Assembly: GCA_964016885.1 (NCBI GenBank)
Contig: OZ024743.1
Coordinates: 165,788,001 to 165,852,000 of the forward strand
Origin: Eledone cirrhosa
Taxonomy: Eukaryota
Direction of reading: 5' to 3'
DNA: 64,000 bases
The translations under genes and the position numbers were made by a program. Position 1 is the first letter of the stretch. The number at the start of each line of letters is the position of its first letter. Below the pieces are notes generated by a model. The model did not search any database and was not told where the DNA came from. It worked only from the letters and a program-made list of their open reading frames with translations. Below are positions 3,240 through 61,228 of this stretch, piece after piece.

Positions 3240-3479
3240 ATAATAATAAATTTGAAGACTAAAATCCAAAGAGAGCTCGATAAGGATAAATATATATCAA
3301 ATATATAAGAACCGTAGAGCAAATAGAATGAAATTTCGTTTTCATTCTATTACAACTTATCGTTTTCGGTGCGCCTGGCCGACTGAACTCACTCTATATG
3401 CAAATTAGGCTGCTCAGCCGTTAATGTTCATAAGGAAAGTATATACTTTCGAACGTTCAACCATCTGGCAGAAGGGTAT

Positions 3480-3522
3480 ACGGTGCTGATGATAGCTTAG
3501 AAGCTTGAAACTAGTACATCGT
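3480..3522 (+). ncRNA. Minimal type I hammerhead, array unit 1
   Basis: Stem I ACGGTG/CATCGT; CTGATGA 3486; GAAA 3507; palindromic stem III ACTAGT; predicted cut after 3516. Confidence 0.85.
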
Positions 3523-3672
3523 TCCTGTGTCAGTGTTGAACAAAAAGGTGACGTGGTTGCCTTAACACCGTACGGCATAAATTCAGGCTGTTCGTTTGTT
3601 TACAAATGGACAAAGCGGGCGTTATAATAAACGTCCGCTAAACTGATACGTACATATATGTATGTGTACCTG

Positions 3673-3712
<40 letters not shown>

Positions 3713-3948
3713 TGCTACTGTACGTCTGTATACATATATGTATGTACGTATACATACATACTTACATTTAAGTAAGTGCCGTACTAAGAGTGAGAAATGA
3801 AATTTCGTTTTCATTCTATTACAACTTATCGTTTTCGGTGCGCCTGGCCGACTGAACTCACTCTATATGCAAATTAGGCTGCTCAGCCGTTAATGTTCAT
3901 AAGGAAAGTATATACTTTCGAACGTTCAACCATCTGGCAGAAGGGTAT

Positions 3949-3991
3949 ACGGTGCTGATGATAGCTTAGAAGCTTGAAACTAGTACATCGT
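3949..3991 (+). ncRNA. Minimal type I hammerhead, array unit 2
   Basis: Same motif; CTGATGA at 3955; predicted cut after 3985. Confidence 0.85.
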
Positions 3992-4162
3992 TCCTGTGTC
4001 AGTGTTGAACAAAAAGGTGACGTGGTTGCCTTAACACCGTACGGCATAAATTCAGGCTGTTCGTTTGTTTACAAATGGACAAAGCGGGCGTTATAATAAA
4101 CGTCCGCTAAACTGATACGTACATATATGTATGTGTACCTGTATGTATATATATATATATAT

Positions 4163-4969
4163 ATACATTATGAAGAGAGAAGAAACATTTAGATATAATT
4201 AGTAATAAAATGTATCATACCTAAACTGTTCCTAAATTCCTCGACTACGTAGTTTCGTGGCATAAACAAAAACAATATATCAAAGATATAGAGTCCTTGC
4301 GAGGTCTGCCGACTTATCAAGAGGATACCTCATTTTACTAGTCTCAAGAACGCGTCTACACGACGTGAGAAAGAATCCCAAAAGGCGGAGGGGGAGATAG
4401 TCACGCGATATAACGGTCGAGAAACAGAGCTAAGCCTCTTATAACCACGAAGAAAATACCACGGAGGCGGAGGGGGTATTCATATCGAGGCCGTAGAAGA
4501 GGTAGTGAAGAAGGCGAGAAGTATGAGTAATGGAAGCTTTCCAGTTGTCCCCACACTTCAAAGATTGCTCGACCAGAGGGAGTTATTAATATATTTAGAA
4601 ACACACAGATACATGCGGACACACACATATATACATGAATGCATCCGCACCCAACTGTGAGTTAAGGGTGCCCTCGCAAGGACTCTATATCTTTGATATA
4701 TTGTTTTTGTTTATGCCACGAAACTACGTAGTCGAGGAATTTAGGAACAGTTTAGGTATGATACATTTTATTACTAATTATATCTAAATGTTTCTTCTCT
4801 CTTCATAATGTATTTTTAACTCTGATACTGGTTCAGTCTAGTTCAAACTGAATTGGTCTGTCCCAGTCATTCATTGAGCAACATCGGTGAAGTTGGCACC
4901 CTTAACTCACAGTTGGGTGCGGATGCATTCATGTATATATGTGTGTGTCCGCATGTATCTGTGTGTTTC

Positions 4970-4977
<8 letters not shown>
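4163..4977. mobile_element. Non-coding hammerhead element with internal inversion, nested in the (TA)n of array unit 2
   Basis: 4163-4304 is the reverse complement of 4672-4813; 4589-4672 is the reverse complement of 4895-4977; TA runs on both sides. Confidence 0.75.
4238..4325 (-). ncRNA. Type I hammerhead, U3:A8 core, about 60 nt stem II domain
   Basis: Minus strand reads TCCTC-TTGATAA-GTcGGCA...TGCCAC-GAAACTACGTAGTC-GAGGA; palindromic stem III ACTACGTAGT; GUC site. Confidence 0.8.
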
Positions 4978-5057
<80 letters not shown>

Positions 5058-5292
5058 TGCTACTGTACGTCTGTATACATATATGTATGTACGTATACAT
5101 ACATACTTACATTTAAGTAAGTGCCGTACTAAGAGTGAGAAATGAAATTTCGTTTTCATTCTATTACAACTTATCGTTTCGGTGCGCCTGGCCGACTGAA
5201 CTCACTCTATATGCAAACTAGGCTGCTCAGCCGTTAATTTTCAAAACGAAAGTATATACTTTCGAACGTTCAACCATCTGGCAGAAGGGTAT

Positions 5293-5335
5293 ACGGTGCT
5301 GATGATAGCTAAGAAGCTTGAAACTAGTACATCGT
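5293..5335 (+). ncRNA. Minimal type I hammerhead, array unit 3
   Basis: Same motif; CTGATGA at 5299; predicted cut after 5329. Confidence 0.85.
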
Positions 5336-5485
5336 TCCTGTGTCAGTGTTGAACAAAAAGGTGACGTGGTTGCCTTAACACCGTACGGCATAAATTCAGG
5401 CTGTCCGTTTGTTTACAAATGGACAAAGCGGGCGTTATAATAAACGTCCGCTAAACTGATACGTACATATATGTATGTGTACCTT

Positions 5486-5567
<82 letters not shown>

Positions 5568-5807
5568 TGCATGCTACTGTACGTCTGTATACATATATGT
5601 ATGTACGTATACATACATACTTACATTTAAGTAAGTGCCGTACTAAGAGTGAGAAATGAAATTTCGTTTTCATTCTATTATAACTTATCGTTTTCGGTGC
5701 GCCTGGCCGACTGAACTCACTCGATATGCAAATTAGGCTGCTCAGCCGTTAATTTTCAAAAGGAAAGTATATACTTTCGAACGTTCAACCATCTGGCAGA
5801 AGGGTAT

Positions 5808-5850
5808 ACGGTGCTGATGATAGCTAAGAAGCTTGAAACTAGTACATCGT
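5808..5850 (+). ncRNA. Minimal type I hammerhead, array unit 4
   Basis: Same motif; CTGATGA at 5814; predicted cut after 5844. Confidence 0.85.
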
Positions 5851-5999
5851 TCCTGTGTCAGGGTTGAACAAAAAGGTGACGTGGTTGCCTTAACACCGTA
5901 CGGCATAAATCAGGCTGTCCGTTTGTTTACAAATGGACAAAGCGGGCGTTATAATAAACGTCCGCTAAACTGTTACGTACATATATGTATGTGTACCTG

Positions 6000-6061
<62 letters not shown>

Positions 6062-6608
6062 TGCTACTGTACGTCTGTATACATATATGTATGTACGTAT
6101 ACATACATACTTACATTTAAGTAAGTGCCGTACTAAGAGTGAGAAATGAAATTTCGTTTTCATTCTATTACAACTTATATATATACATATATATATATAA
6201 ATATATATATACATACATATACATACACGCACACATACACACATACACACACACGTACGAATAAATAATTAAAATACTATAAATGTATGTACACATGAGC
6301 CTGTCTGCAAATACGCCCGCACACAGCCCTATGTGGGAACATAAAAACCTAGTGGGTAAGTAAGGACAAAAGGGGAGTAAAATTGAAATAATAAACACAA
6401 ATATTAAGAATAGATATGGGAAAAGTGTTGTAAAAGGTTTGCGATCAGAGTATCTCGTTAAAGAGTGAACTGAGTAAATGATAAAGGTGGTGGGTGTGTA
6501 TGTGTAAAGGGTAAGGTAGAAAGTAGGGGGGATTATAAGTATGAGTTCATACATAGATAGGCTAAGCGAAAGATACATATATTGACCAGATAGTCAAACA
6601 CACCATCA

Positions 6609-14820: not shown

Positions 14821-17800
14821 ATGTTTCTTTTATTTGCCACCAGGGCATCAAAAGTGGGACAAGTACAATGGGGGGAGTTTACAAAACAAGGCGTCCTCAA
14901 TAAGGAGGAGGCAATAACAATATATAAAAATAAAATAAAATATAACAAAAAATAAAATTTATAACAAAGTCCTCAATAGAGAGGAGGCGCCTTGGGGGTC
15001 GCACACACCCCCGAAACAAGTGTGCAACCCTTCTCCTCAGGAGCACAGAGAAGGGGTGCTCCCTTGGTCTTTCATCTTCCTCACCTATAGTCTGATGTAG
15101 AGTGAAGGCCCATTCACACGGGCCATTCTCGCCACTTTCACCCATCTTTCATAGAAACGGCTGGGGTGCAGCACCTCTCTCTCCATCCTGATCCTTCTTC
15201 CGAAATGATATCGGAATAAACGGACCAGTTGTTGGCCAGAGAGAAAGGTGTCTGACCTCAGTCCTTTCAGACGCGTCCACCATACGCCATGGCTATTACG
15301 CACAGAAACACCGCCTCTCCTTCGTTTTTGAAGAGGGGGGGTGGGGGGGGTGGGGGGGGGGGGGGGGGGGGGCTTGATCATTACAAAAGACTCGGTGGTC
15401 AACCGGATCGGTCCCACCCTTGACAGCAGTTGTTCGACATAGCTCCACAGATCGGCAATGCCCGAGCAGTGTACCAATGCGTGTGCAACGGTTTCCTCGT
15501 CGCACACGCATCTGGGACAGACCTTTTTCGATGGGTCCCTACACGGGCGCCCGTGTCTGTAGAGCCTTTCTCGAACGGGCAGAGCCCTTCTGTAGCATTG
15601 CCAGGCCAGGGACCTCTGGAAGTTATCCATGGGTCCCGGGCTGAATGTCCTACCGAACAGGTTGGCCAGTTCGTCTTCCTCCATGCCTAGGGCTTCTCCG
15701 AGGGCGTCGTCGCACCTGCTAACCACCAGCCCTCTATAGAATGACGAGGTGGATTCTCCACTGACAGCCGGGTCCGCCTGCCAGAGAGCCGTGAGCGCCT
15801 GGGCACACTCGGTGTGCCAGGCGCCCAGTTTTCTCGGTCTTTGCTTGACCCAGGATTGCAGCTCGGTGAGTGAGACGAGTCTCGGAAAGGCTCGCCTCAC
15901 AAACGGGGCCCACACCGGTTGACCGGAGAGGAATACCTGAAGGTGCCGTAGCCTTAATGCGTGTTTACGTATCATCAGCCACGGCACCCCCAGCCCTCCT
16001 TTCGAAGGGTGTTGACAGCAGATGGATCTCCTCACCATAGGAGCCCGCTTCTTCCAAAGGAATTAGAAGAGTGCGCGCTCCATTTTGGCGAGCGTTTCCC
16101 TTGGGCAAGGCACCACGGTCAGGCGGTAGTAGATGACGGACGCTATATAAGTGTTCGCCACCTCCGCCCGACCTTTCAGGGACAGTTTGCACTCGGCCCA
16201 CTTCTGGGTCAGTGCAAACACCCTGTTCGTCACCTCACCCCAGTTCTTCTCCACCTGGAGGTCTGGTCCGAACCAGACCCCGAGCAATTTCACCGGGCCA
16301 TCTGTCCAGCGCCCGACGACGCCATCGGAGGGCATCGATCTGCCCCTCCACGTGCCGAGTTGCAGACCGATCGACTTGTCCCGGTTCAGCTTAACCCCTG
16401 TAAACCTTTCGTACTCCTCCAGTAAGGTGCCGATCGCCCCGATTTCCGAGGCCGCCGACACCATTACTGTTACGTCATCGGCTTAGGCTGACACCGCTTT
16501 CCGCAATCCCGGTTCCAACGGGATGCCCTGCAACAACTCCAACTTCCGCAGCAGGGAAGAGAGAGGGCATCCCTATCGGATGGACCGCGCGATTTCGAAC
16601 GGCTCCGAGAGGTAGCCGTTCACCTTGACCCTAGAGCAGATGCGGCTGCTGTGCATGGCATTGATCCAGCCCCTGAAAACGGGTCCGAAGCCTGCCGCCG
16701 CTAGCACCGCATCCAGGTAACCATGGTCGACCCTATCGAATGCTTTAGATTGATCCAAGTTGATCAGGGCCCCACCAAAGCCGGGTTCGTTCCCAACCCT
16801 CTCTATGATGTATCGCATGAGGTGGAGGTTATCGTGGATGGACCTGGACGGGATAGCACATGTCTGCGCATCTCCCACCAGGTTGCCCACGACAAGCGCC
16901 AACCTCTTTGCTAGCACCTTGGCCAAAATCTGTAACTCTGTATTTAGAAGAGTTATGGGCCTGGAATTATTTATATCGTCCCCCTTGTTCTCGTCCTTCC
17001 TCACTAGCGTGACTACGCCCTTGGTCACAGCACAGGGAATTCTCCCGTTCTGTCGCCAGTTGCAGTAGACCGCCTCGAGGAGTTCGGGGAACAAGTCCGG
17101 CATAGCTAGATATAGTTCGTATGGAAGACCATCGAGACCCGGGGATTTGCGTTTGCCGCATTGGCTCAGCACGTCCTCTATCTCAGCGGCTGAAATCGGC
17201 TCCTCGCAGGACTTCGCCTCCCTGTCCGAGAGACGCGGCAGGCCGTCGAGGTATGGACCGAAGTCCACGTCCCCAACCGGCCCCCCGCCCCTTCCGAACA
17301 ATTCGGCAAAGTGCTTTTGAAAAGCCTCGCACATCTGCTTAGGTTCAAGGATCACCCGTCCATCCTCGTCTCGCAAAGACCGGATAGTAGATCTGCTCCC
17401 TCTTTTGGCTTCTGTCACGCGGGCCCAGCTAACAGCTTTGGTCCCCTCGTTTCCCAGAGCACGTATTTTGCTTCGGACGATGTAGTCTTCGTGTTTCGCG
17501 TCGAAGAACTGGCCCAGGGCCGTTCTCGACGCTAGCACTCTGGCCACGTCGCCGCTTCTAATTGCCTCTTCTACACTATCTACCAACTCCCTTTCCTTCC
17601 TATTTCTATTTGAGGCTAACTCCTTACTAAATTCTATAGAGACTACTCTAATCTCTTTTTTGAGAGATCCCCACCACCTGCTGTTGACGATGGCGCCCGT
17701 CAACCGCTCCTTAACTAAAGTGCTAATCCGGTTCCTGTAAGCCTTACTTGCCGGTAAGGACAAGTTGAGCTTCCAGTAACCGGGTCCCTGTCTATGAGTT

Positions 17801-17851
17801 CTGTCAAGGTTGACCATGCAGGTCACTAATTTGTGGTCTGAATAGCCAACC

Positions 17852-17852
<1 letters not shown>
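14821..17852 (-). mobile_element. Tx1-clade LINE, diverged subfamily, 5'-truncated copy D
   Basis: Runs from SDHK through the RT (DQSKAFDRVDH; YADD broken by a stop) to CPRC; different 3' UTR but the same AATAAA + (TATC)n end. Confidence 0.9.
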
Positions 17853-17882
<30 letters not shown>

Positions 17883-17885
<3 letters not shown>

Positions 17886-17942
17886 TTCTCTATTAGCCAC
17901 AAGGGCGCAACAAGAAAGGGGACAATACAAAGACATGCCGGG
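17883..17942 (-). mobile_element. Tx1 LINE 3'-terminal 60 bp (copy E) inside (GATA)n
   Basis: TATTAGCCACAAGGGCGCAACAAGAAAGGGGACAATACAAAGACATGCCGGGG matches 13506-13558. Confidence 0.85.
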
Positions 17943-23180: not shown

Positions 23181-26100
23181 AGTCAACGCGATCAGTCGCA
23201 TATTTTGGCGTAGGAGACTATTTATTAAATTTAAGATGAATACTATCTCCGACAGTAATGCCACAACTACAGCCAGGTTGAATAACTGGTTATTCTTCTA
23301 ACTATCCCTTCTGAAGACACCTTTTATTCGAATTCGTAGAGATATCCGACTAAATACATAATTAATTTTACAAGGATTTGCTACAAACAGCATGGCTGAA
23401 CACAACATCAACATCAAAATTAAGGAAGTATCGAAGACAAACAACAAAGAAGGTAATCAAACTTTATTCAGTTGTAGTTACAGAAGAAACCGAAATTATA
23501 AATCGCATTTCTCTTGGAGTTGCGAACTTAATAATGATTTATTTAATTGTTATAAAATGGCAAAAAACAATCCCTCCATTGGCTATATGAATAGAATGAA
23601 GCTACACTGGGACGAAATGCACCCAGAGCTAAATTATTTCACAGCGAAACAATTACACCAACAAGCGACGTTTGTTGAACGTAAAAATAAGATAAATATT
23701 ATTAATTGTAAGTCCCCAACAACAAACATGGAATCAACAACACGTGCTACAGATCGCCATGCTACTAGACTTCCTAGCAGCCAGATCGAACAGCGCCTTG
23801 AAACAACTATGCCTGTAAGAAATTTGACACCACCTGTACCATCTAAGTCTACCTCGAATGCTGGCGAAAACACTATCGATAATAATAATAATCGAAGAAA
23901 TAATAATAATAATCGAATAAATGTGACACCACGTATACCATCCGAGTCTACCTCGATTATCGATAATTATAACCAAAAGTATAAACAATTGAAAATTTCC
24001 CTCAACGAAATCTTCCAGAGAGAAATTAACTCATGTATAAATATCTCTCTGGCTGAACGTGTTAAAATGACAATGGTGAATAAAAAACCAAATAATGAAA
24101 TACTACGTGTTATTGACGAAATAGGGGATGAATATTTACGACGGATAAAAACCCCAACATTTTGGCAAATCAACGCCTGTTTATATGCCTTAGTAATGAC
24201 AGTGAAGCATTATCTTGGTGATAGCAGAGATATTAACAAGAACAAAACACCACCAAAAATACCATCATATATAACTAAAATAGAAAAAAAGAGTGCTGAC
24301 CTACGAAAAAACATAGGACATGTGACAATGCTTCTTACATGCAAACAAACACAAAAAAACCTCACTCCTCACCAACAAAGAGTGAAAAATAAAATAGAGA
24401 CGATGTTTGGTAACAGTAGAACCAGAACTCTCCAATATAAGCTGATCACCCTCAAACAAGAATTGAGAGCTGTTAGCGAAAAACGCCGATACCTGAAGAA
24501 GGTAGATGAGAGAAAAATGCTTAATAAAAGATTCAGACGAAACCAAACATCAGTCTATAGAGATATGAAGGGCAAAATAATAAGTGTCACTGAGGCCCCA
24601 TCCCAGAAAGACATAGATTCCTTTTGGAGAAAAATATGGGGTGAAAAGAAGAATTTCAACCAAGATGCAGTGTGGCCAAGAGAAATCCGAAAGAACTATT
24701 GCTCCTACACTACAACAAAAACATACGAAATAAGTGAGGGTACCCTTGAGACTGTGATAGGAAAACTCCAAGATAAGAAAACACCAGGAAGAGACATGAT
24801 TGTCGGCTACTGGTACAAAAAAATAATATTCTATCGGAGGTATCTTACTGACCTCTACCAACAAGTTCTTAAGGGAGATACACTTATACCAGAATGGTTG
24901 ACATTAGCACAAACGTTACTGGTCCCCAAGAACAAAGACACCCACTTGGCAAAAAACTACCGATCCATTGCATGCCAGAACCTGATGTATAAGATGTATA
25001 CAGCCTGCCTGAACCTATTCCTCCAAGATCACTGTGAAAATAATAACATCATCACAGATGAACAAGCAGCTGGAAAGAAAAGGGTTTGGGGATGTGCTGA
25101 ACAACTCCTAATCAACAAAACTGCGATGTCGGAGGTGCGACAACTTAGGAGGAATATGACTACAGTCTGGCTGGACTACAAGAAAGCTTTCGATTCTGTT
25201 CCCCACTCTTGGATGATAGAGGCCCTCCAACTTGCTAAAGTCCCAGACATTATTGTCAGAGCCATAGAGAAGCTGTCTTCTTCTTGGGCTACTATCCTAA
25301 GGTTAAAGACAGAGAGGGAGGACTCTATTTTCACTGATAAAATAAAATAGTGCAGGGGTATATTTCAGGGGGACAGTCTCTCTGTGATATTGTTCATCTT
25401 GTCATTAAACCCCTTGTCATTTCTGCTCAAGAGATGTGAGGGATACATCATTGGCTCACAGGAGGACAGAAATACGAACCTAACCCATAACTTCTTTGTG
25501 GACGATCTGAAACTCTATGCCAAGAACATGGATGGGATGAAGAAAAATCTTGACCTGGTTACAACGTTCTGAAAGGATATAGGAATGGAGTTTGGCCAAG
25601 ATAAATGCTAATACATGACTGTAAAGCGGGGAAAAACAACAACCCAATCTAGCAACATTGTCATCAATTGTCTAACTGTTTCACCGATATCTGATGAGGA
25701 CTGCTACAGATACCTGGGGATAGATGAGAACATATCCTATAATGGTATCAGTAATAAAGAACGCGTAACCAGGGAATATTACACCCGATTAAGAAAGATC
25801 TGGTCATCGGAACTCTCTGCGCAAAACAAAACAGTGGCTCACAATGTGTTTGCTGTGCGTGTCCTAACACCAACGTTTGGAATACTCAATTGGACGATAG
25901 ACGAAATCCGAGCAATTGATTTTGGAACTCGAAAAATAATGAACAACACCGGAAACTTCCACATCAACAGTGACATAGACCGCCTTTACTTGAAACGTAG
26001 GCAGGGAGGCAGAGGCCTAACATCAGTCCAGACAACATTTGAATGTCGCATCATATCTCTCCGACAACATCTAAGAACCTCGAAGCGTAGGAGCCCGCTT

Positions 26101-27287
26101 CTCGAGAAAGTCTATCTGCATGAAACAGATAAGACCATGAGAGTTGGGAAGGAACTCCTTGAGAGATATTCCGTGTGTGATAATCAAAAACTCACACCCA
26201 GGGATGTCGCTCAGCAGTATCACAGTGAATCCATGGATGAAAAACTGCATGCCTATCAGCAAAAAATCATGCATGGATATGTTGCCAGGAAGCTCCAGAG
26301 TGAGAGTAATATAGATAAGGAAAGTAGTCTATCTTGGTCCAACAACCGCTATATTGGCTCCCACTTTGAAGGATACGCTTTTGCAATCCAAGAACAGGAG
26401 ATTAGCACGAAATACCTGATTCACAAAAGAGATAGGGATGCAGAAAAAACACCTAGATGTGATAACAAGTGCAGACTCTGCAGAACTAACATCGAGGATA
26501 TCAGCCATGTCATCAGCAGCGGTCCAAAGATGTCATCGCGGTACTATCTATCCATGAGGCATGATGTAGTGGCCAAAACACTGTACAATGCAGTTCGTAA
26601 AAAAGATAGCCCCGATAATAAACACATTAAAAGCTACAACAATGTGGAAGACATCCATGTACATAATATGAAAGAGTATTGGTGGAATGTTCCAGTAAAA
26701 ACCCCAATAAAACGCAGGCATAACAGACCAGATATTATGATATGGGACAGAGAGAAGAAAACATGCACAGTAGTTGAAATTAGCTGCCCAGCAGATGCCA
26801 ATATAATATCAAAGATTAGTGAAAAGGAGAATATTTATGCAGAACTGATGAGAAATCTCCAGATACTCCACCCTGATTGCACCTTCAGATTTATGCCTGT
26901 GATTATTGGGGCACTGGGACATGTTAGTAACTGCCCCAATACAAATCTTGAGAAGCTAGGCTTCCCAGGAACAGAAAGAACACAACTAGTTAGGAAACTT
27001 CAAGTACAATCCATTAATGGAACAGTAAAAATATGTAAAACATTCCAAAAATTTTGCATCTAATAACTGCATATACACATGTACAGATACAAAGCATATA
27101 CACATTCACATATACAACTCAAAACATCCACATCCACACATACAATAACATCCATATCTACACATGCATGCATACATATCTACCTAGTTGATGTTGTGTA
27201 AATTCCAATGAGAGAGTCTTGTGTCTATGTTAGAAACCGACTCTCTCTCTATTGGTAAAACTTTGTGAAATTATAAAACCAGAAGAA
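23181..27287 (+). mobile_element. R4/Dong-clade non-LTR retrotransposon (RT + restriction-like endonuclease), near full length, in (CATA)n
   Basis: (ACAT)n at 23121-23180 and 27287-27310; single long ORF region carrying RT and RLE motifs. Confidence 0.85.
23392..27063 (+). pseudogene. RT-RLE polyprotein with in-frame stops
   Basis: KTPGRD, NYRSIAC, WLDYKKAFDSVPH, GIFQGDSLS, FVDDLKLYA, GGRGL, CRLC..H, RHD, RPDIMIWD..VEISCP; stops near 25348, 25570 and 25609. Confidence 0.9.
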
Positions 27288-43309: not shown

Positions 43310-46300
43310 GCTCAAGTATTAATGTAAGGGAGATATATAGAGAGATATAGAGAGATATAGAGAGAGAAAAAAAATTTAAAAATAGCCAGACATATTCGAG
43401 GCGTAGAAAACCCTATGTTTTAATGTATTAGTATTTATAAAACTTACACTACATTGTAAATATCAGTATTCCTGAATGGAACAAGTATTCACAATGTGTG
43501 AAAATTCATTATCTTATGTTTAGTTTTAAAAAATTCATATGTTTATGTGACAGCTACAAACATCAATGTGAGTCCAACTGATTCACTCCGCAAACTCTAA
43601 GTTACCGGAAAACATTCTCAATGTGGTATAAAAATTTGAGCGCATTATTATTCTTGCGATTACTCTACAAGATTATCTATCAAGCAGAAATAGAGAGCAG
43701 ATTTCAATATACTAATCAAAAATATATATTATATTATAAACAAAACTAAAAATAAAAAGATACCAATAATAATAATAATAAGTAAAAATATATAAAAATA
43801 TAGAATAGAAAACTAAAAAAATAATATTACGAAAGAATATTACATAATAAAAATATTGCATATTAAAAATACTACGTATTAAAAAATATTACGTATTAAA
43901 AATTTACATATAAAAATATTAAAAATAAAATAAAAATAAAAATATTATAGAATACTACAATACTAAAAGAATAAAAATAAAAATAAAAATAAAAATAAAA
44001 AAATAAAAATAAAAATAAAAATAAAAATAAACCACAAAGAACAACCCTTCAAAGTTAATTGACAATATATTGCCAAGTTCATTACAAGACAAAGCCAAAA
44101 ATTATCTATCAAATCACATCTAGCAAAGAACATCTCAAAACGATTATGATGTCCAATTATGTCTACATATGTTCCTATATTTAATATAGAAGTTTATCTA
44201 GTGTAAGGTTAATTCAAAAAATTTGGAGCATCGGCTTTTAGGGTAGCTTAATTTTTCATGAGGAATGTTTAGATAAAAATAAAAATAAATAAAATAAAAT
44301 AAAATAAAATAAACAATAAAAAGAGTAAAAAGAGGGAATCAAAGATTTAGGAATCAAAAATTTATCGGCTAGCTCTCACATAAACACAAATCAAACTAAA
44401 TATACTACATTTTAAATTTAAATTTATATTTAAACGTTGAGTTTAATCTATGTTTGCAACAACTGAATAAATTTGTCCGTAGGTTAAGGGAATTTTTAGA
44501 TTTTAGTATAAAGAATATCTCCTCTGCGCAGAGGTCACATGTCTCAGAGGATGAATTAAAAGGAATCCCTCTTGAGACTATATTCCAAGCCGTCGAATAT
44601 CTAACGTTATCTAGCTTAAGTTGCCAGAGTACGCCTGATAGTGCCGTTGAAGATTTTTTCATTTGGATCTGTGAAAGAATTCTTGTGGTTATTATAGCGA
44701 AGTTTAAATTCCGTTGATGTGGAACCGACGTAGTTAAAAGAATTAGAGTCAGTATTAACATTACAATTGTATACTATATTTTTAACTAAGCAGTTGTTAT
44801 TTAACGGACATTTAGATCTATCTCTACAGTTACATTTGTTAACTTGTATATTATTTATGCTATTATCAGTAGGTTTTAAGTTCCTATTATTTATTCTATT
44901 AATATTTTGTGCTAAATTTTTGGTGGATGAGTAGGTTAATTTAATTGTATGCCTATTGAAGATTGAGTGATACCTATGTGTTCTAGGGAAGCGATTATCA
45001 AGAGCTTTGAAAAATAATTTAGCGATGTGGGTTTTAATGTTTAGTGAGAAAGGGGGGGCAAACCAAATTATGTTCCTAGTTCTATTTCTTTTTTGTCCTT
45101 TGGAATTATTGTAATGCTTTCTATTATAGTTGTTAATGTTGTTGCCGTAATTAAAAAAGTTGTTACTTTGTTTAGTTTGTCTATCATTATCTATGTACAC
45201 AATCTTATCAGCATACCCTGCCCTAGCTAGTGCATCATTATAGTACTGGGCCTTTTCGTCAAAAATCTTTCTATTCGACGAGATCCTAGAGATACGTTTT
45301 TGGACTGAGTTTACTATAGTGTTTTTGACAGATCTGGGTGGTTAGAGTTAAAGTTGACATAGTTTAAGTTTTCATTCAACTTGTGAAAAGGATAGTGGAG
45401 ACATGTGTTGAGATTTAATGTTATATCTAGGAAATTGACTATTCTATGGTTGTTCTCAATTTCTATTTTAAGGTTAAAGTAATTAAAAAATTTTGTAATT
45501 TGTTTACATTTTCTATTTAGTTCAGGGTTATTATTATTAATAAGTAAAAGCATGTCATCCCTATATAAACCTCCGGTAGTACCAGGTATTTTCCTATGTA
45601 GCGAATTGATTAAAAATAAGCCCACAAGGTCAGTTACCTGAGCTGAGTCGGAAGATCCCATAGTTATGTCAAAATTGCTATCTCTATCTGCTCTGGTCCA
45701 TAATTTGTCATTAAATTCTATCAAAGTTTTCCTAGCCGATAATATAATATGCATTTCTTTGCTAGTTAGGTCCGTATGTTTGAATGCGTAATTTAGTGCC
45801 TTATTTAGTAGACTAGGGGTAATAGAAGAATAATAGTTAGCTATATCAAGTTGAATAAACCTATTATTATTGTTATATTTAATTTGCCTAAACCACTCAA
45901 CAACCTCTCCAGTTCCCCTCCACAAGCTCAGGTTAGATACACAATCCAAGTTCTTAATTTGCTGTATCACCCTGTCAGGAATGTTTTTGCTTAATTTGCC
46001 CAGGTCCGACTTTGAAGGTGCGATCAATCTAACTGGCAGGTCATTTTCAAAATTCCTCTTGTGGTCCTTCATATTGATCTTCGGTTTCCTGGGCACGAAA
46101 GGTTGTGTTCTGTTCTCAATTTCCAACTCATGCATTATACAAGATGCTTCAACATTCATTTTCTCAAGTTCGGCCTTATCTGCTACCTTGTATTTTTTCC
46201 TCAGCTCTTTCAGTATGAGGCCATTATACATGTCTTTCCGCACTCCATAGAGGTTGTTGGTCTTGTCAGATTTCACCAAGATCTTCTCAGTTTTCTCTAA

Positions 46301-46365
46301 GCGCTCAATGTTATCCTTAATGCCTTTCAGATATTCCTGGCCTTTAAAATTTCTCTTGAATTTGA
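42795..46365 (-). mobile_element. Naiad-like Penelope element (RT + GIY-YIG + AT-rich 3' UTR), 5'-truncated
   Basis: KSDKTNNLY, ITMGSSDSAQ, LYRDD, IIWFAPPFS, CNC..CPLNNNCL..IVY..YVGST..FKLRYNNH, CDLC, CKH. Confidence 0.85.
42851..42916 (-). ncRNA. Type I hammerhead at the 3' end of the Naiad-like element
   Basis: Minus strand reads TATTTTGT-CTGATGA-aGGcATAgCATATT..AATATGaTATcCCc-GAAATATATATA-ATGAAATA. Confidence 0.75.
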
Positions 46366-46371
46366 TATATA

Positions 46372-47640
46372 TATATTTGGAAAAACATATGATTTTTATA
46401 TATAGGTTTTTATATATATATGTGGAATAACCTATGGTTTAGGCTTTAAATATATTCTTAAGATAAATTTTTTTTTTTAATTTTTAACTTTATAGCTAGT
46501 AAATTTATGACTTCGTATAAAATAACATAATATGGTTCATGTTTTAATTATATTCTTAAGATAAAAAATGTTTAACTTTTTAACTTTATAACATTTAATC
46601 CTTGGAGTCATCTGAGATCTTAAAAAATCACTTATAACTTCCTTTACACTTCCTTACTGTTTTTATAATATAATTAAGTGGTTATTCGTTTGTAAACTCT
46701 CGCAAATTTTTCATAAATTTAGAATTATTTGGATGTTTAAATTTTGACTTACAACTTTTAATAAAATAAACTATATTAGATTTTCTCTAATGTAAAATAC
46801 TATATATTTATAATCCTTAACATACACATTTAAACTAATTATTAATATTAAATTATTAATTTAAATCTTTAATATTAAGGCAAATTTTAATCTTTAATTT
46901 TGATTTCTAATTTTTAATTTTAATCTAATTTTTCAACCTATCATTATAAGTATTATAATCAAAACGTAATGAACCCTGCATTATAAATATTCTTCTTCCA
47001 CGTTAATCTTATTTCTTCTTTCACTTAGATATACTTACGCTGTATATATTTATCTTTTGAAACTTATTTATTCATGCACTCTATCTTCACTATCAATATG
47101 TATAATCGTTCTTTCTTTCCTCTTCTCCTTTTTTTTTCGTTTTTCTTTTTTTCTCTCTCCCTTACATATCATCTTCTTCCAACAGTTTAATTTAAATAAA
47201 CCGTTATCTTTTCAACCTTTCGGACACTCATTTGCATACTCACTCATAACTTTGTATTACCCTCAATAAATGTACTTTCTCCACTATCCAGGAAGCTCCA
47301 ACCGTTCAGGTTGTCTTTTTTCCGGGTATGTCAATATTTATTTATAAAACAAATCTGTATTTTATCTGATGAAAGCGCACCAGAATGGTTGCATTTTTTA
47401 AGGGTATGTCAATATTTATTTATAAAACTAACCTATATTATATTTTATCTGATGAAAGCGCACCATAGTTTGCTCTGGTGGCCCTTGAAATGTGTATAAT
47501 GATATAAATATGGTTTTATAAATATAGTTTCCATTTGTTAATATATTGTATATTTACTCCAATAATTTGTTGAGTGCTTTATATCAGTTATAAAAATATT
47601 TTGCTTGTTGTATCCCAACAAATTAAATATAACCTCTACA
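46372..47640 (+). mobile_element. PLE 3' UTR/terminal segment, inverted relative to 41113-41695
   Basis: 46375-46712 is the reverse complement of about 41362-41695; 47441-47636 is related to the reverse complement of 41131-41332. Confidence 0.75.
47441..47506 (+). ncRNA. Type I hammerhead, preceded by a half copy at about 47359-47392
   Basis: TATTTTAT-CTGATGA(47449)-AAGcGCACCA..TGGTGgCcCTT-GAAA(47487)-TGTGTATA-ATGATATA. Confidence 0.75.
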
Positions 47641-51735: not shown

Positions 51736-53704
<1,969 letters not shown>

Positions 53705-54653: not shown

Positions 54654-56358
54654 TATTATAGGTCCGTATGAAGCTAAGAAGAAATGCGTGTGTATATGTG
54701 AGTAAAAGAGTATGTATGCATGTAAGTACGAAGCTATGAGCAAAAGTATGTTAATATAAGGGTGTGTATCGGCATGTATTAGTAGTAAGAGAAGCTGCTA
54801 ATGATCAAGAGAAAGCGATAGGAATCTAGGGGTGTGATAATGGACGGGGTATTAGAAAAATTTGGGAGGTGAGTTGAGTCCAAGAGGGGAATAGGACCCA
54901 AGACGGTGAATCAGACTTTGTTCAGTACTGGTGCGCGAGGCCTGTGATCCATGATGTAAAAGGACACCCAGGACTGAAACATGTAGGGAAGAATGACCAG
55001 GAGAACAGAAATGACAGGCGACAGGAGTATCCAAACCGAGTCGTATGTCCCTCAAATGTTCGGCAAAACGGTCCGCCATACGGCGTCCCGTTTGTCCAAT
55101 ATATAAAGACCCGCAAAGGGAACACCGGAGGGCATAGACAACGTGGGTGAAGGAATGGCGGATACGGAAAGAGCCGTTAGGGCCTGTAAGAGTGGTGAGG
55201 GTGGAAATAAAGGGACAAGTGTTGCAGCGGGAACGGGAACAGGGATGAGAGCCGGGTGGAGTCGTGGTAGAGGACGAAAAAGAACTTCGAACCAGGAGGT
55301 CGCGGAGTTTGCGGGCGCGCTTAAAAGAAGTAATGGGTGGGATCTGAAAAAAGCGAGAAGTGACGGGGTCAGAAGAGAGGATACAGAAGGAACGGAGGAT
55401 ATGTCACCGGAGTGGTAGGGTGATGGTGTGGTAGGTGAGAGGGAAAGGAACACGGGTGTTGGGAGGGCGGGGAGTGAGGTGAGAGGGCTGTGGTGCGGTC
55501 TGTTTCATGGGCGCGGGTGAGAGCAGCTCGGATAAAGGTAGGCGGATATCCATGCTGGATGAAGCAGGAAGCCGTGCGAAGGGAATGGGTTTCGAAATCG
55601 TCATCCTGGCTACAGAATCGACGAAGACGGAGGAATTGGGAATAGGCTATGGAGTGTTTGGTGTGGGTTGGATGGGAGGAGGTGAAGTCGAGGTAAGATT
55701 GGAAGTCTGTTGGTTTAATGTAGATGGAAGTCGAGAGGGTGTGGTTAGAGTGATTAATAGATAGAGAGATATCTAAAAAAGCGACAGAAGAATCGGAGAC
55801 GGAGGCGGTGAAATTGAGAGCAGGATAGAAAGATTGGACAAAAGAAAGAAAACAGTCGAGCTGTTCTCGTGATAGAGAGGTGGCGCCGATACAGTCGTCG
55901 ATATAGCGACCGTATAGCTCAGGAGTCGGTCCAGCGTACTGGGAGTAGATCTGGGCTTCGACGTAGCCAACAAACAAGTTGGCATAGTTTGGACCCATTC
56001 TGGTTCCCATCCCTACCCCAGAGATCTGCTGGTAAAATTACCCGAAAAAGAAAGTCCATTAAGGGTGAGAACAAGCTCAGCCAGACGGAGAAGAGTGGTA
56101 GTGGTGGGGTAAGGGGTAGGGCATATATCTAAAAAATGCTGGAGAGCGCGGAGGCCATCATCATGAGGGATGACGGTATAGAGAGAAGTGATGTCCAGGG
56201 TAAAGAGAAGGCGGGAGGGACCAGGAAGGAAGGAGAAAGAGTTGAAAAGTCTAAGGGCATGATTTGTATCGTGGATGTGGGAGGGAAGATTGCCGACCAA
56301 CGGGGCGAGGATGGTGTCTAAATATTCAGAAATGATCTCGGTGGGACAGTTGCACATC
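54282..56358 (-). mobile_element. Penelope-like element (Neptune-type), 5'-truncated, paralogous to 37400-40952
   Basis: LDITSLYTVIPH, MGTRMGPNYANLF, YGRYIDD, ADRFAEHLRDIR..GLNSP. Confidence 0.9.
54349..54386 (-). ncRNA. Minimal hammerhead in a PLE 3' end
   Basis: Minus strand reads TTCTT-CTGATGAA-GGAC-tagc-GTCC-GAAACGTT-AAGAG. Confidence 0.85.
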
Positions 56359-58679: not shown

Positions 58680-61228
58680 AAGAAGAAAAATATTTTTTTT
58701 CCCATTATTTTTTGTCCGGGGTTAGAAAATGTTTAAAACAAATTATTTTACTTTCTGTGAAGTGTCAAAGCATTTATTTATTTATTAACAATTATCGGTT
58801 TCAGCATTTTATGCGTTTTCAAATTTTGTGAGTGGGAGAGAAAAAAAAAGGATTTGTTTGTACAAAATGTAGAACAGAAATTAAGGTGATGTTAAACATG
58901 TTAGAGGAAGTAATGGGGGTAATGGGAAAGAGGAAATAATATTATTTACAAGCATGGTTTTTTTAAGACAAGCAGTGCAAGCATTATTTTTAGGCGAGAT
59001 AGCTGGAAAACGTTCCTTCTTTGAGGAGGCAAGTGGCCGTCTGGGACTGGATGTGTTTTCCCTTTTTAGAGAATTAATATGCAGGGGGAGGTAATTCAGG
59101 GTGGGAGGATAGGGTAAGAGAAAGAGAGGGGATAATTCCTTTATTTAAGAAAAAGGAATAGGCAGTAACTCCTAAGAGAACACATAAATTTGAGATATGG
59201 GTAACGTAGAAATAGAAGTAAAATAGTCCCTTATGGGTGACTCTAGGGTTCACTGTTCATTCTACTTTTAGTTTAGTCCATTTAGAAGGGGTTGGAATTT
59301 GTTAATGAAGTACGTTTCCTTATTAGTGCGTTGGATGAAAGAAGCGTTGTCTATGAATTTGTAGATGGGGAAAATTCTAAAGTTTGGTAGTTGGTCAGGT
59401 GCACAGTTGGCGATATGTTCACTAAGAGCAATCTTTCTGTATTCCTGTATTTTGATTTGTGATCTATAGACGGTCATACGTTGTCGGAGGCTGTTTTTTG
59501 TCTGTCCTATGTAGTGCTCTCGACAACCTGAGCAGGTCAAAACATAGATTAGGATGCACATGTAAAGTTGTATTTAACTGTGAAATGTTGTCCTTGTTTA
59601 AAGTAGAATGTTGAACCTTCTATTAGACTTATGCATATACCACAGTTGGGCCTTCCACATTTTCTTTTTACTGTATGGTTCATTGTGAGGGTTGGCTGGA
59701 TTTTGGCTTGTGTGAGGATATTTTTTATGGATTTAGGTTGTCTTTTGCTCTTTATTATGTGTGTTTGGAGGATTTTATTCATTCTTGGGTATCTTTTAAG
59801 TAAAGGTATGTGCTGGAGGATGGTGTCGAATGCCTCGTTGTTGAGGGGGTTGTGTGTGGAGATGTATGGTAAAGTTTTCTGTTGCGGTTCATTCGTTGGT
59901 TTGGTGTGTCTAAGTTCCTGGATGTTGAGTTTTAGGGCACCTTGGAATCCATTGTTGATTAGGGAAGGTGGGTAATTTCTGCTGATAAGAGTGTTCTTTA
60001 ATTCTTCTAGTCGTGTGTAGCATGTGTATTTATCAGAAACTATTGTGCAGGTTATAAAGAATTGCCATTTTGTTATGGCGAGAGTGGCACGAGTTAAAGG
60101 GAAGATATTGTTTGGAGTCTGTGGGTTTATAGTATGTCTGTTTCTATTTTGTTGTTTGTTTTCTTGATGAGGATGTCAAGGAAAGGGAGTTGTTCATGGC
60201 TGTAATCCATTGTAAATTGAATGTTTGTGTTGAGTCCATTTAGAAGTGTTTTAAACTTAATAAGTCTTTCTATACTTTCATGCCAGAGGATGAAGCAATC
60301 GTCCAGATATCTCTTCCAGTTTTTTTTCTATGTGGAGGTAGAAGGGGTTACCGTATTTGTCTAGAACTTTTCGGTAGAGAATGGTTTCCAAATATCCCAT
60401 GACAAGGTTGGCGTATGAGGAGGCTACTTTCGTGTCCATGGCAGTCCAAAATTTCTGTCTGTAGTATTTGGCATCGAATTTGTAGTAGTTATTTTCCAAG
60501 ATGAATTTGAGGCCCTCCATCACAAATTCTTTAGAGATGCGGTGTGGAAGTTCATTAGGGTAATTTTCAAACCAGAATTGGATTACCTCTATACCTAAGT
60601 CGTGTGGGATATTGGAATAAAGATTGATTACATCAAAGGATACTAGTAGCGTATGTTCATTATTAAGTGTTATTTGGAGATTGTTGGGCATATCCAGGTC
60701 GTCCCTTATGTAGCTTTTAATGTGTTTCAGGAATGGTTTAGGCAGTATATCTAGGAAGCTGCTTAGGCGGTGGTACCTGTTATTATGGGTCTTAATTTGA
60801 GGTCATTAGGAGGGGGGAGGGGGCATTGATGAAAATGTCTGTGGCCTCGTTGCAGGCCCTGCCTATCTCTTCGCTTTTGTGTATCTTTGGGATACCGTAG
60901 AAAAGGCTGGGTCTGCTTTTGAAGTTAGTGATATAGTTGTACTCCTTGTCGGTAAGACCTTCTCTGTAAAGGGTTGTTAGAGATTTTTGGTTTCTCATTG
61001 TTTTCTGTTGGCTGTAGTGTTGAGCCTTTTCGTAGTATGTTTCGTTTTCTAGAGTTGGGAGTACTAGGGTTGTGTAGTATTCTGTCTTCATAAGGACTAC
61101 TGCACTCCCTTTATCCGCCTCTTTGATTGTTAGAGTTTTATCGTTCTTTAAACTGTTAAGACCATTCCATTATTTTTTGTTGAGGTTTGGTTTGTGTTTA
61201 TGCCTGTGTAGGTGATGGTATGGGTAAT
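58680..61228 (-). mobile_element. Penelope-like element (RT + GIY-YIG), degenerate
   Basis: IKEADKG, FYGIPKIHK, SFDVINLYSNIPH, AMDTKVASSYANL, RYLDD, CGRPNCGIC, LIYVLTCSGCREHYIGQT. Confidence 0.9.

Follow-up and report, generated by a model that had tools for sequence, protein, structure and literature searches.

Head-to-head insertions of a 591-nt hammerhead repeat in Eledone cirrhosa pair two fixed 3' ends

One fixed 3' end per arm

We found that most head-to-head insertions of a 591-nt hammerhead repeat in Eledone cirrhosa carry two fixed 3' ends, one per arm. That each two-armed insertion takes one of each site is the main feature of this family, and it was absent from the preliminary description of the DNA. 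Among 198 outer 3' ends, 109 lie at site S1 (unit position 80) and 84 at site S2 (unit positions 245-250), with 5 elsewhere; unit positions are counted from the predicted hammerhead cut. The ends are not permuted, as had been proposed: 193 of the 198 fall at two fixed sites, and only the 5' ends scatter. After deduplication, 63 of 69 head-to-head insertions pair S1 with S2 and none pairs S1 with S1 or S2 with S2, while an aberrant end at neither site was seen in six (L037, L039, L055, L057, L151, and L157). The pairing was found in a discovery set chosen by the hammerhead motif (23 of 27) and again in a later held-out set chosen by one end (40 of 42). Two-armed insertions account for 27 of the 52 insertions of the discovery set. 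Single-armed copies of the same set end at S1 in 12 cases and at S2 in 11, so if the arms chose their sites independently, same-site pairs should make up about half of the total (0.5^63, about 1e-19).

The natural unit was mapped onto the window, that is, the whole 64,000-nt stretch of DNA that was analysed (contig OZ024743.1, positions 165,788,001 to 165,852,000), and onto 130 stretches of contig C1; all sampled copies lie within the first 103 Mb of C1. Stretches L001-L030 and L161-L167 were left out because they overlap with larger stretches. Also dropped before counting were BLAST matches shorter than 45 nt confined to a TG-rich stretch, three 'complex' rows (L076, L089, and L125), and arms shorter than 30 nt, including tiny S2 arms at L130 and L152 that fit the pairing rule and stayed uncounted. 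The same two-armed insertion is present twice in each of L043 and L160, about 2.6 kb apart, and the second copies of these duplicated loci were likewise removed. Arms under 85-90% identity were left out of the counts of 5' ends, outer 3' ends, and variants.

The insertion in the window illustrates the layout. Its left arm (4163..4672, minus strand, 510 nt) reads blocks C (4672-4589), B (4588-4305, 284 nt), and A (4304-4163), corresponding to unit positions 162-591 followed by 1-80, and its 3' end is S1 (4163..4175, minus strand, unit 80, ...CUUCAUAAUGUAU). The right arm (4672..4978, plus strand, 307 nt) reads blocks A (4672-4813), D (4814-4894, 81 nt), and C (4895-4978), or unit positions 530-591 followed by 1-245, and ends at S2 (4964..4978, plus strand, unit 245-250, ...GUUUCUAAAUAUAU). 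Both sites are fixed 3' ends on (TA)n. The arms meet 5'-to-5' at 4672..4672, where the assembly sequence has one base, C4672, common to both, and remnants of the (TA)n target lie to the left (4146..4162) and right (4979..5054). An exact-match map bears out the block order first described (minus arm C-B-A, plus arm A-D-C), with the duplicated blocks identical: 4163-4304 is the reverse complement of 4672-4813 over 142/142 nt (block A), and 4589-4672 that of 4895-4978 over 84/84 nt (block C). Blocks B, A, D, and C add up to 591 nt, the tandem period found elsewhere in the genome, in agreement with the single loop of about 590 nt suggested earlier. The interval between S1 and S2 (4814..4978, plus strand, 165 nt, blocks D and C) is the counterpart of the PLE 'tail', a concept taken from PMC11167929. 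Two common alleles are all that separates this copy from the family majority, so it is young; without a full unit on either arm, it is a dead copy that has value only as an example.

Each of the two arms runs across the predicted hammerhead cut, and one linear RNA would need at least 675 nt of the 591-nt unit to cover them; the template was therefore either circular or longer than a single cleaved monomer. In this sense, the circular or multimeric template of the preliminary description stands, but its reading of the C-B boundary as the junction of a circle does not. Blocks C and B are indeed adjacent (4580..4600, minus strand, unit 245/246), whereas the labels '3' block' and '5' block' fail, as the two are contiguous inside the unit and the sequence reads through S2. 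The boundary is not an RNA end because it is internal to the tandem unit and read through in 2,996 places. These are the genomic matches that a pattern search for the C-B junction returned, and in tandem copies C precedes B, which does not continue upstream into a PLE ORF. The predicted RNA joint of the monomer would be the hammerhead cut, inside block A.

A run of (TA)4 or more directly follows 192 of 197 S1 and S2 ends. An A stands in place of the G of AUGUAU at 21 of 102 S1 ends and in 0 of 165 internal copies (p = 4e-10), and this restriction to the ends fits a (TA)n primer overlying these bases. Base pairing alone does not select the sites, because the longest TA-matching run of the unit (ending at 207) never serves as an end (0 of 198). 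Target duplications of 13 and 15 nt were read at two insertions in imperfect targets (L031 and L044); in pure (TA)n, which includes the window locus and most of the 61 listed insertions, they are unreadable.

The 5' ends of the arms are scattered around the unit. Median arm lengths are 508 nt for S1 and 489 nt for S2, with no difference between the sites, and the lengths of paired arms are not correlated (p = 0.06). The total exceeds 591 nt in 48 of 58 simple two-armed insertions, and 24 of the 58 must copy a shared segment twice if both sites are neighbours. S2 arms are not blocked at S1. At the inversion junction of one insertion (L074:5706-5764) we observed a stuttered short repeat.

L1 twin priming uses one poly(A) end and a chance internal start site. 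In contrast, both start sites of the 591-nt family are fixed and its arms overlap on the template. Nor do the 5' end of one arm and the start of the other fit together as in L1: this collision test was negative (1 of 58 each way, 4.0 expected). The two systems are alike in their head-to-head inversion, which in L1 arises when the RNA is primed from each 3' end of the broken target, and in the short shared bases at the joint (PMC2246262).

The 591-nt unit and its hammerhead motif

A 23-mer of the hammerhead motif has 7,458 matches in the 3.0-Gb assembly, often 591 nt apart. Pattern searches gave 2,661 genome-wide matches to the S1 end and 978 forward-strand matches to the S2 end, the reverse-strand count for S2 being inflated by repeated starts and left out. 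Tandem arrays with the 591-nt period reach about 5 units. The longest stop-free stretch in the six frames of a natural two-unit copy is 86 codons (GC 0.42), and the unit holds no ORF with an RT and a GIY-YIG endonuclease. No coding sequence is common to the upstream flanks of 31 single arms. Within the window and the 130 stretches, comparisons by shared flanks, tblastn, and blastn revealed no partner PLE that shares sequence with the unit, nor any similarity of the unit to the pLTR of such a partner.

Judged by its sequence, the element appears to have the tested features of metazoan non-LTR retrozymes. As in published descriptions of these (PMC7229834; Li et al. 2026), it is a protein-free tandem repeat of a few hundred bases with a GC content under 50%; the resemblance extends to the type I hammerhead, which is present once in each unit and has a stem III that is short and palindromic, and to thousands of dispersed monomers to multimers. 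The unit is longer than the 150-450 bp given in PMC7229834 and falls within the 51-972 bp range of Li et al. (bioRxiv 10.64898/2026.07.22.740005), and its U3-A8 core with a long stem II sets it apart from the metazoan retrozymes described there. Word searches of PMC7229834 and Li et al. 2026 returned no inverted arms, fixed 3' ends, or priming. Likewise, we found no description of fixed two-site priming or inverted arms in retrozymes in the open literature searched.

In insertion layout, the element appears to be PLE-like and not an autonomous PLE. Endonuclease-bearing PLE insertions are described as having a partial tandem structure, an inverted 5'-truncated copy, a one-sided tail, and (TA)n targeting (PMC8557442, PMC3846280), and the origin of their tandem and inverted structures and tails has been called undefined (PMC8557442). 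As in these accounts, the 591-nt family has a head-to-head inverted 5'-truncated arm, a fit that the preliminary description had recognized as a PLE-style inversion, and two 3' ends with a tail at one of them; its (TA)n targeting is as reported for Naiad and Neptune PLEs. Part of the pairing rule is thus already in print, namely the one-sided tail of PLEs beside an inverted copy. The first end lies 80 nt past the hammerhead cut in the 591-nt unit and about 85-92 nt past it in the PAc PLE (numbers from PMC11167929). Unlike the PLE insertions described so far, the family has no ORF, its tail measures 165 nt against 30-40 bp, and its arms often exceed one unit.

The predicted type I hammerhead lies on the minus arm (4238..4325, minus strand), where the preliminary description had placed it, and was recognised by sequence; an Rfam scan of the insert did not report it and gave only low-complexity miRNA matches. 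Read from 4325 to 4238, its parts are stem I UCCUC/GAGGA, core UUGAUAA, a long stem II, GAAA, and the palindromic stem III ACUACGUAGU, and the predicted cut falls after GUC, between 4243 and 4242. The plus arm starts with a partial hammerhead without core (4672..4738, plus strand), whose predicted cut position (4733/4734) is read through. The core is a U3-A8 variant, the same in 228 of 232 copies. An identical core covariation is known from PLE-related hammerhead motifs of Schistosoma mansoni (PMC4209133). As described in that source, the schistosome motifs are mostly single, heterogeneous, and minimal, whereas those of the 591-nt unit are uniform and tandem, with a 3-bp palindromic stem III; the same source reports that hammerheads whose stem III is short and palindromic function as dimers.

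Of 246 crossings of the predicted cut, 245 are intact, with no base gained or lost. Three of 210 arm 5' ends lie exactly at this position (0.36 expected; p = 0.006), which is only a hint that the motif may cleave itself. The hammerhead fold is less stable than the minimum free energy structure by 3 kcal/mol, and the hammerhead region alone has a fold z-score of -0.5. Folded as a circle, the whole natural unit reaches a z-score of -6.9 (40 shuffles), which, in this modelling, would be a sign of structure and not of circularity. Older relatives, with 76-84% identity, occur at L055:2824-3300, L076:2530-3014, L037:2516-2850, and L089:142-436; they keep the U3-A8 core and stem III, and their stem II extension is variable. 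The relatives at L037 and L089 are likewise head-to-head, one arm having the S1 end.

Template, priming, and rival explanations

Both arms of an insertion share one haplotype. They differ from each other at 81 of 15,639 shared positions (0.52%), compared with a median of 1.6% to other insertions; this comparison covers the 52 of 63 insertions with enough overlap, 11 with fewer than 60 shared positions having been left out. Units within one arm are 0.44% different, against about 1.6% between insertions. Twenty of the differences seen within insertions involve common family alleles, several of them not at CpG, which allows for some mixing of templates.

Insertion L074 has 4.9 and 2.7 units on its arms, and all 7-8 copies, on both arms, carry seven A>G changes plus C318G and C472A. 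Three of these nine changes were checked genome-wide: the patterns at 113/114 and at 318 have 7 matches each, all within L074. Across 127 insertions, changes common to all copies of one insertion comprise 11 A>G and 4 T>C (RNA sense), compared with 5 A>G and 16 T>C among single-copy changes (p = 0.006 for the skew). These variant counts were made without unit positions 76-85 and 240-255 and, except in the L074 allele listing, without 196-215. A neighbour bias of the ADAR kind is not clear at the A>G sites, where a 5' G precedes 4 of 21 recurrent sites compared with 28 of 119 A overall, and a homoplasy test of these sites was not significant (p = 0.07). Since C318G and C472A are not of the ADAR type, a parent array missing from the assembly could have carried all nine changes; such an array would in turn have had to expand from one unit to many.

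The reading that we favour, with moderate confidence, is that a Penelope-type RT/endonuclease acting in trans nicks both strands and primes one cDNA per site on one probably circular RNA monomer. Its parts differ in strength. Two-site twin priming is very probable, and we hold the involvement of an enzyme of the Penelope type with the same high confidence; repeated copying of a single monomer is likely; and we lean towards a covalent circle as opposed to a nicked one. Under this scheme, hammerhead dimers would cut multimer transcripts into monomers, which would then be ligated. Both nicked (TA)n 3' ends would anneal to UAU motifs at S1 and S2, and the trans-acting enzyme would give one site to each target strand. 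Each cDNA would extend 5'-ward to a random stop, often beyond one unit, strand displacement by the enzyme would let one circle be copied several times, and the two cDNA ends would be joined with a few shared or added bases. In agreement with several of these steps, a PLE protein predicted to form a dimer has been reported to nick and extend both strands of AT-rich DNA in vitro and to start at two sites inside the RNA, which set the tail seen in the genome (PMC11167929). In that report, uncleaved RNA is the main substrate and no strand difference in start site was found, whereas the 591-nt family takes one site per arm.

A more specific version is tentative and somewhat doubtful. In it, a Penelope enzyme dimer would sit on S1 and S2, 165 nt apart on one covalently closed, sometimes A-to-I-edited circle, both strands of the (TA)n would be nicked and receive one site each, and both polymerases would roll round the circle. 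If true, this would give direct genomic evidence for retrozyme circles as a transposition intermediate in animals, and PLE tails, inversions, and tandem arrays would all follow from a single step.

The main rival, which the in vitro study favours (PMC11167929), is two-site twin priming on a long linear multimer that stays uncleaved and is transcribed from a homogeneous source array, with no circle. PLE-type hammerheads are described as weak in cleavage (PMC4209133), virtually all predicted cut sites are read through (245 of 246), and source arrays of 4-5 units are present. We nevertheless consider this explanation unlikely. A linear multimer alone cannot make or renew long arrays, because every copy is 5'-truncated, and the low divergence of units within an arm indicates that lineages pass repeatedly through one unit. 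Moreover, the L074 changes occur in all units of both arms, and the three markers checked are found nowhere else in the assembly.

Considerably less probable is a linear monomer that has cleaved itself and is held together at its ends by hammerhead stem I, forming a nicked circle in which the enzyme jumps the nick. Such a template would explain the monomer bottleneck equally well, and the 3 of 210 arms that end exactly at the predicted cut are on its side. However, template jumps often leave scars, and the 245 intact crossings have no added or lost base. In addition, animal retrozyme monomers are reported to be circularised in vivo (PMC7229834). An inversion made at the DNA level after insertion, by fold-back or replication template switch, or an assembly artefact, has a negligible probability and at the family level is already refuted by the pairing rule: palindromes and (TA)n are fragile, and at 5 of 58 junctions the two 5' ends lie no more than 15 nt apart, but this number is at chance level (3.0 expected, p = 0.19), and fold-back predicts outer ends at one site or at random, whereas 63 of 69 insertions have S1 with S2, each with its own junction.

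Retrozyme papers infer that circles are copied back into DNA. To this, the 591-nt family would add two constraints: the two target strands use different fixed starts, and one monomer is likely the ancestor of all units in an insertion. The value of the family, which is young and uniform and counts thousands of insertions, lies in its family-wide pairing rule and in the single-monomer evidence. For work with the existing in vitro PLE system, it offers a target, a defined RNA of 591 nt, and two start sites.

Public runs, neighbouring elements, and host array

Part of the element is present in 20 public runs under 17 coded organism labels, with run types mostly off record and no RNA run listed among them; these matches may stem from contamination, diet, RNA, or horizontal transfer. 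Runs X1 and X6 hold one contig each, of 621 or 620 nt, closing the unit into a loop. Loop-closing 591-nt contigs were discounted as evidence of a circle, being equally expected from tandem DNA. Run X5 has one 577-nt contig at depth 105, and run X2 has 1,298 variant contigs. No match came from the Hi-C data of organism F (X22, of which about 1% was covered), although X9 bears the same label.

An ORF-bearing, TA-inserting PLE-like family occupies some of the sampled stretches too and, in line with the favoured reading, repeats the layout of one site per arm: all 8 of 8 head-to-head pairs have, by eye, one short and one tailed arm, with tails of 41-56 nt. The family has no sequence in common with the 591-nt unit. 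It is young, and at window:28869-29975 it has a GIY-YIG-like frame by eye, to which Pfam gave no match; its two ends, both on (TA)n, are separated by 56 nt. It occurs also at L032, L038, L039, L063, L114, L118, L131, and L156, and a relative of it has ends 41-55 nt apart. Broken PLE-like RT/GIY-YIG frames were noted by eye at window:39009-40972, 44616-46438, 52371-53319, 54852-56037, and 59549-61169; a Pfam GIY-YIG match was obtained in only 1 of 7 PLE-like frames, at window:52371-53018. Repeated broken frames of non-LTR retrotransposons occupy window:6898-17889 and 23362-27063, with RVT_1 matches at 16573-17889 and 23362-25350.

The window insertion itself landed in the (TA)n of another hammerhead array, as the preliminary description had stated. 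This host is a tandem hammerhead repeat (3327..6178, plus strand) whose unit carries (TA)n and which has four canonical CUGAUGA cores, at 3486, 3955, 5299, and 5814 (spacing 469, 1344, and 515). It is unrelated to the 591-nt insert, with no real similarity on comparison. The insert is located between host units 2 and 3, and both its outer ends adjoin (TA)n. Host units 1 and 2 are identical, and units 3 and 4 are about 2% different from them. More canonical type I hammerhead motifs, with a TATA-type stem III, were observed at window:3055, 34065, 41323, 47449, 53839, 54088, 57581, and 57707, the last two forming an inverted pair. At L094:6345-9472, the 591-nt family is found once again within the (TA)n of the host-array family.
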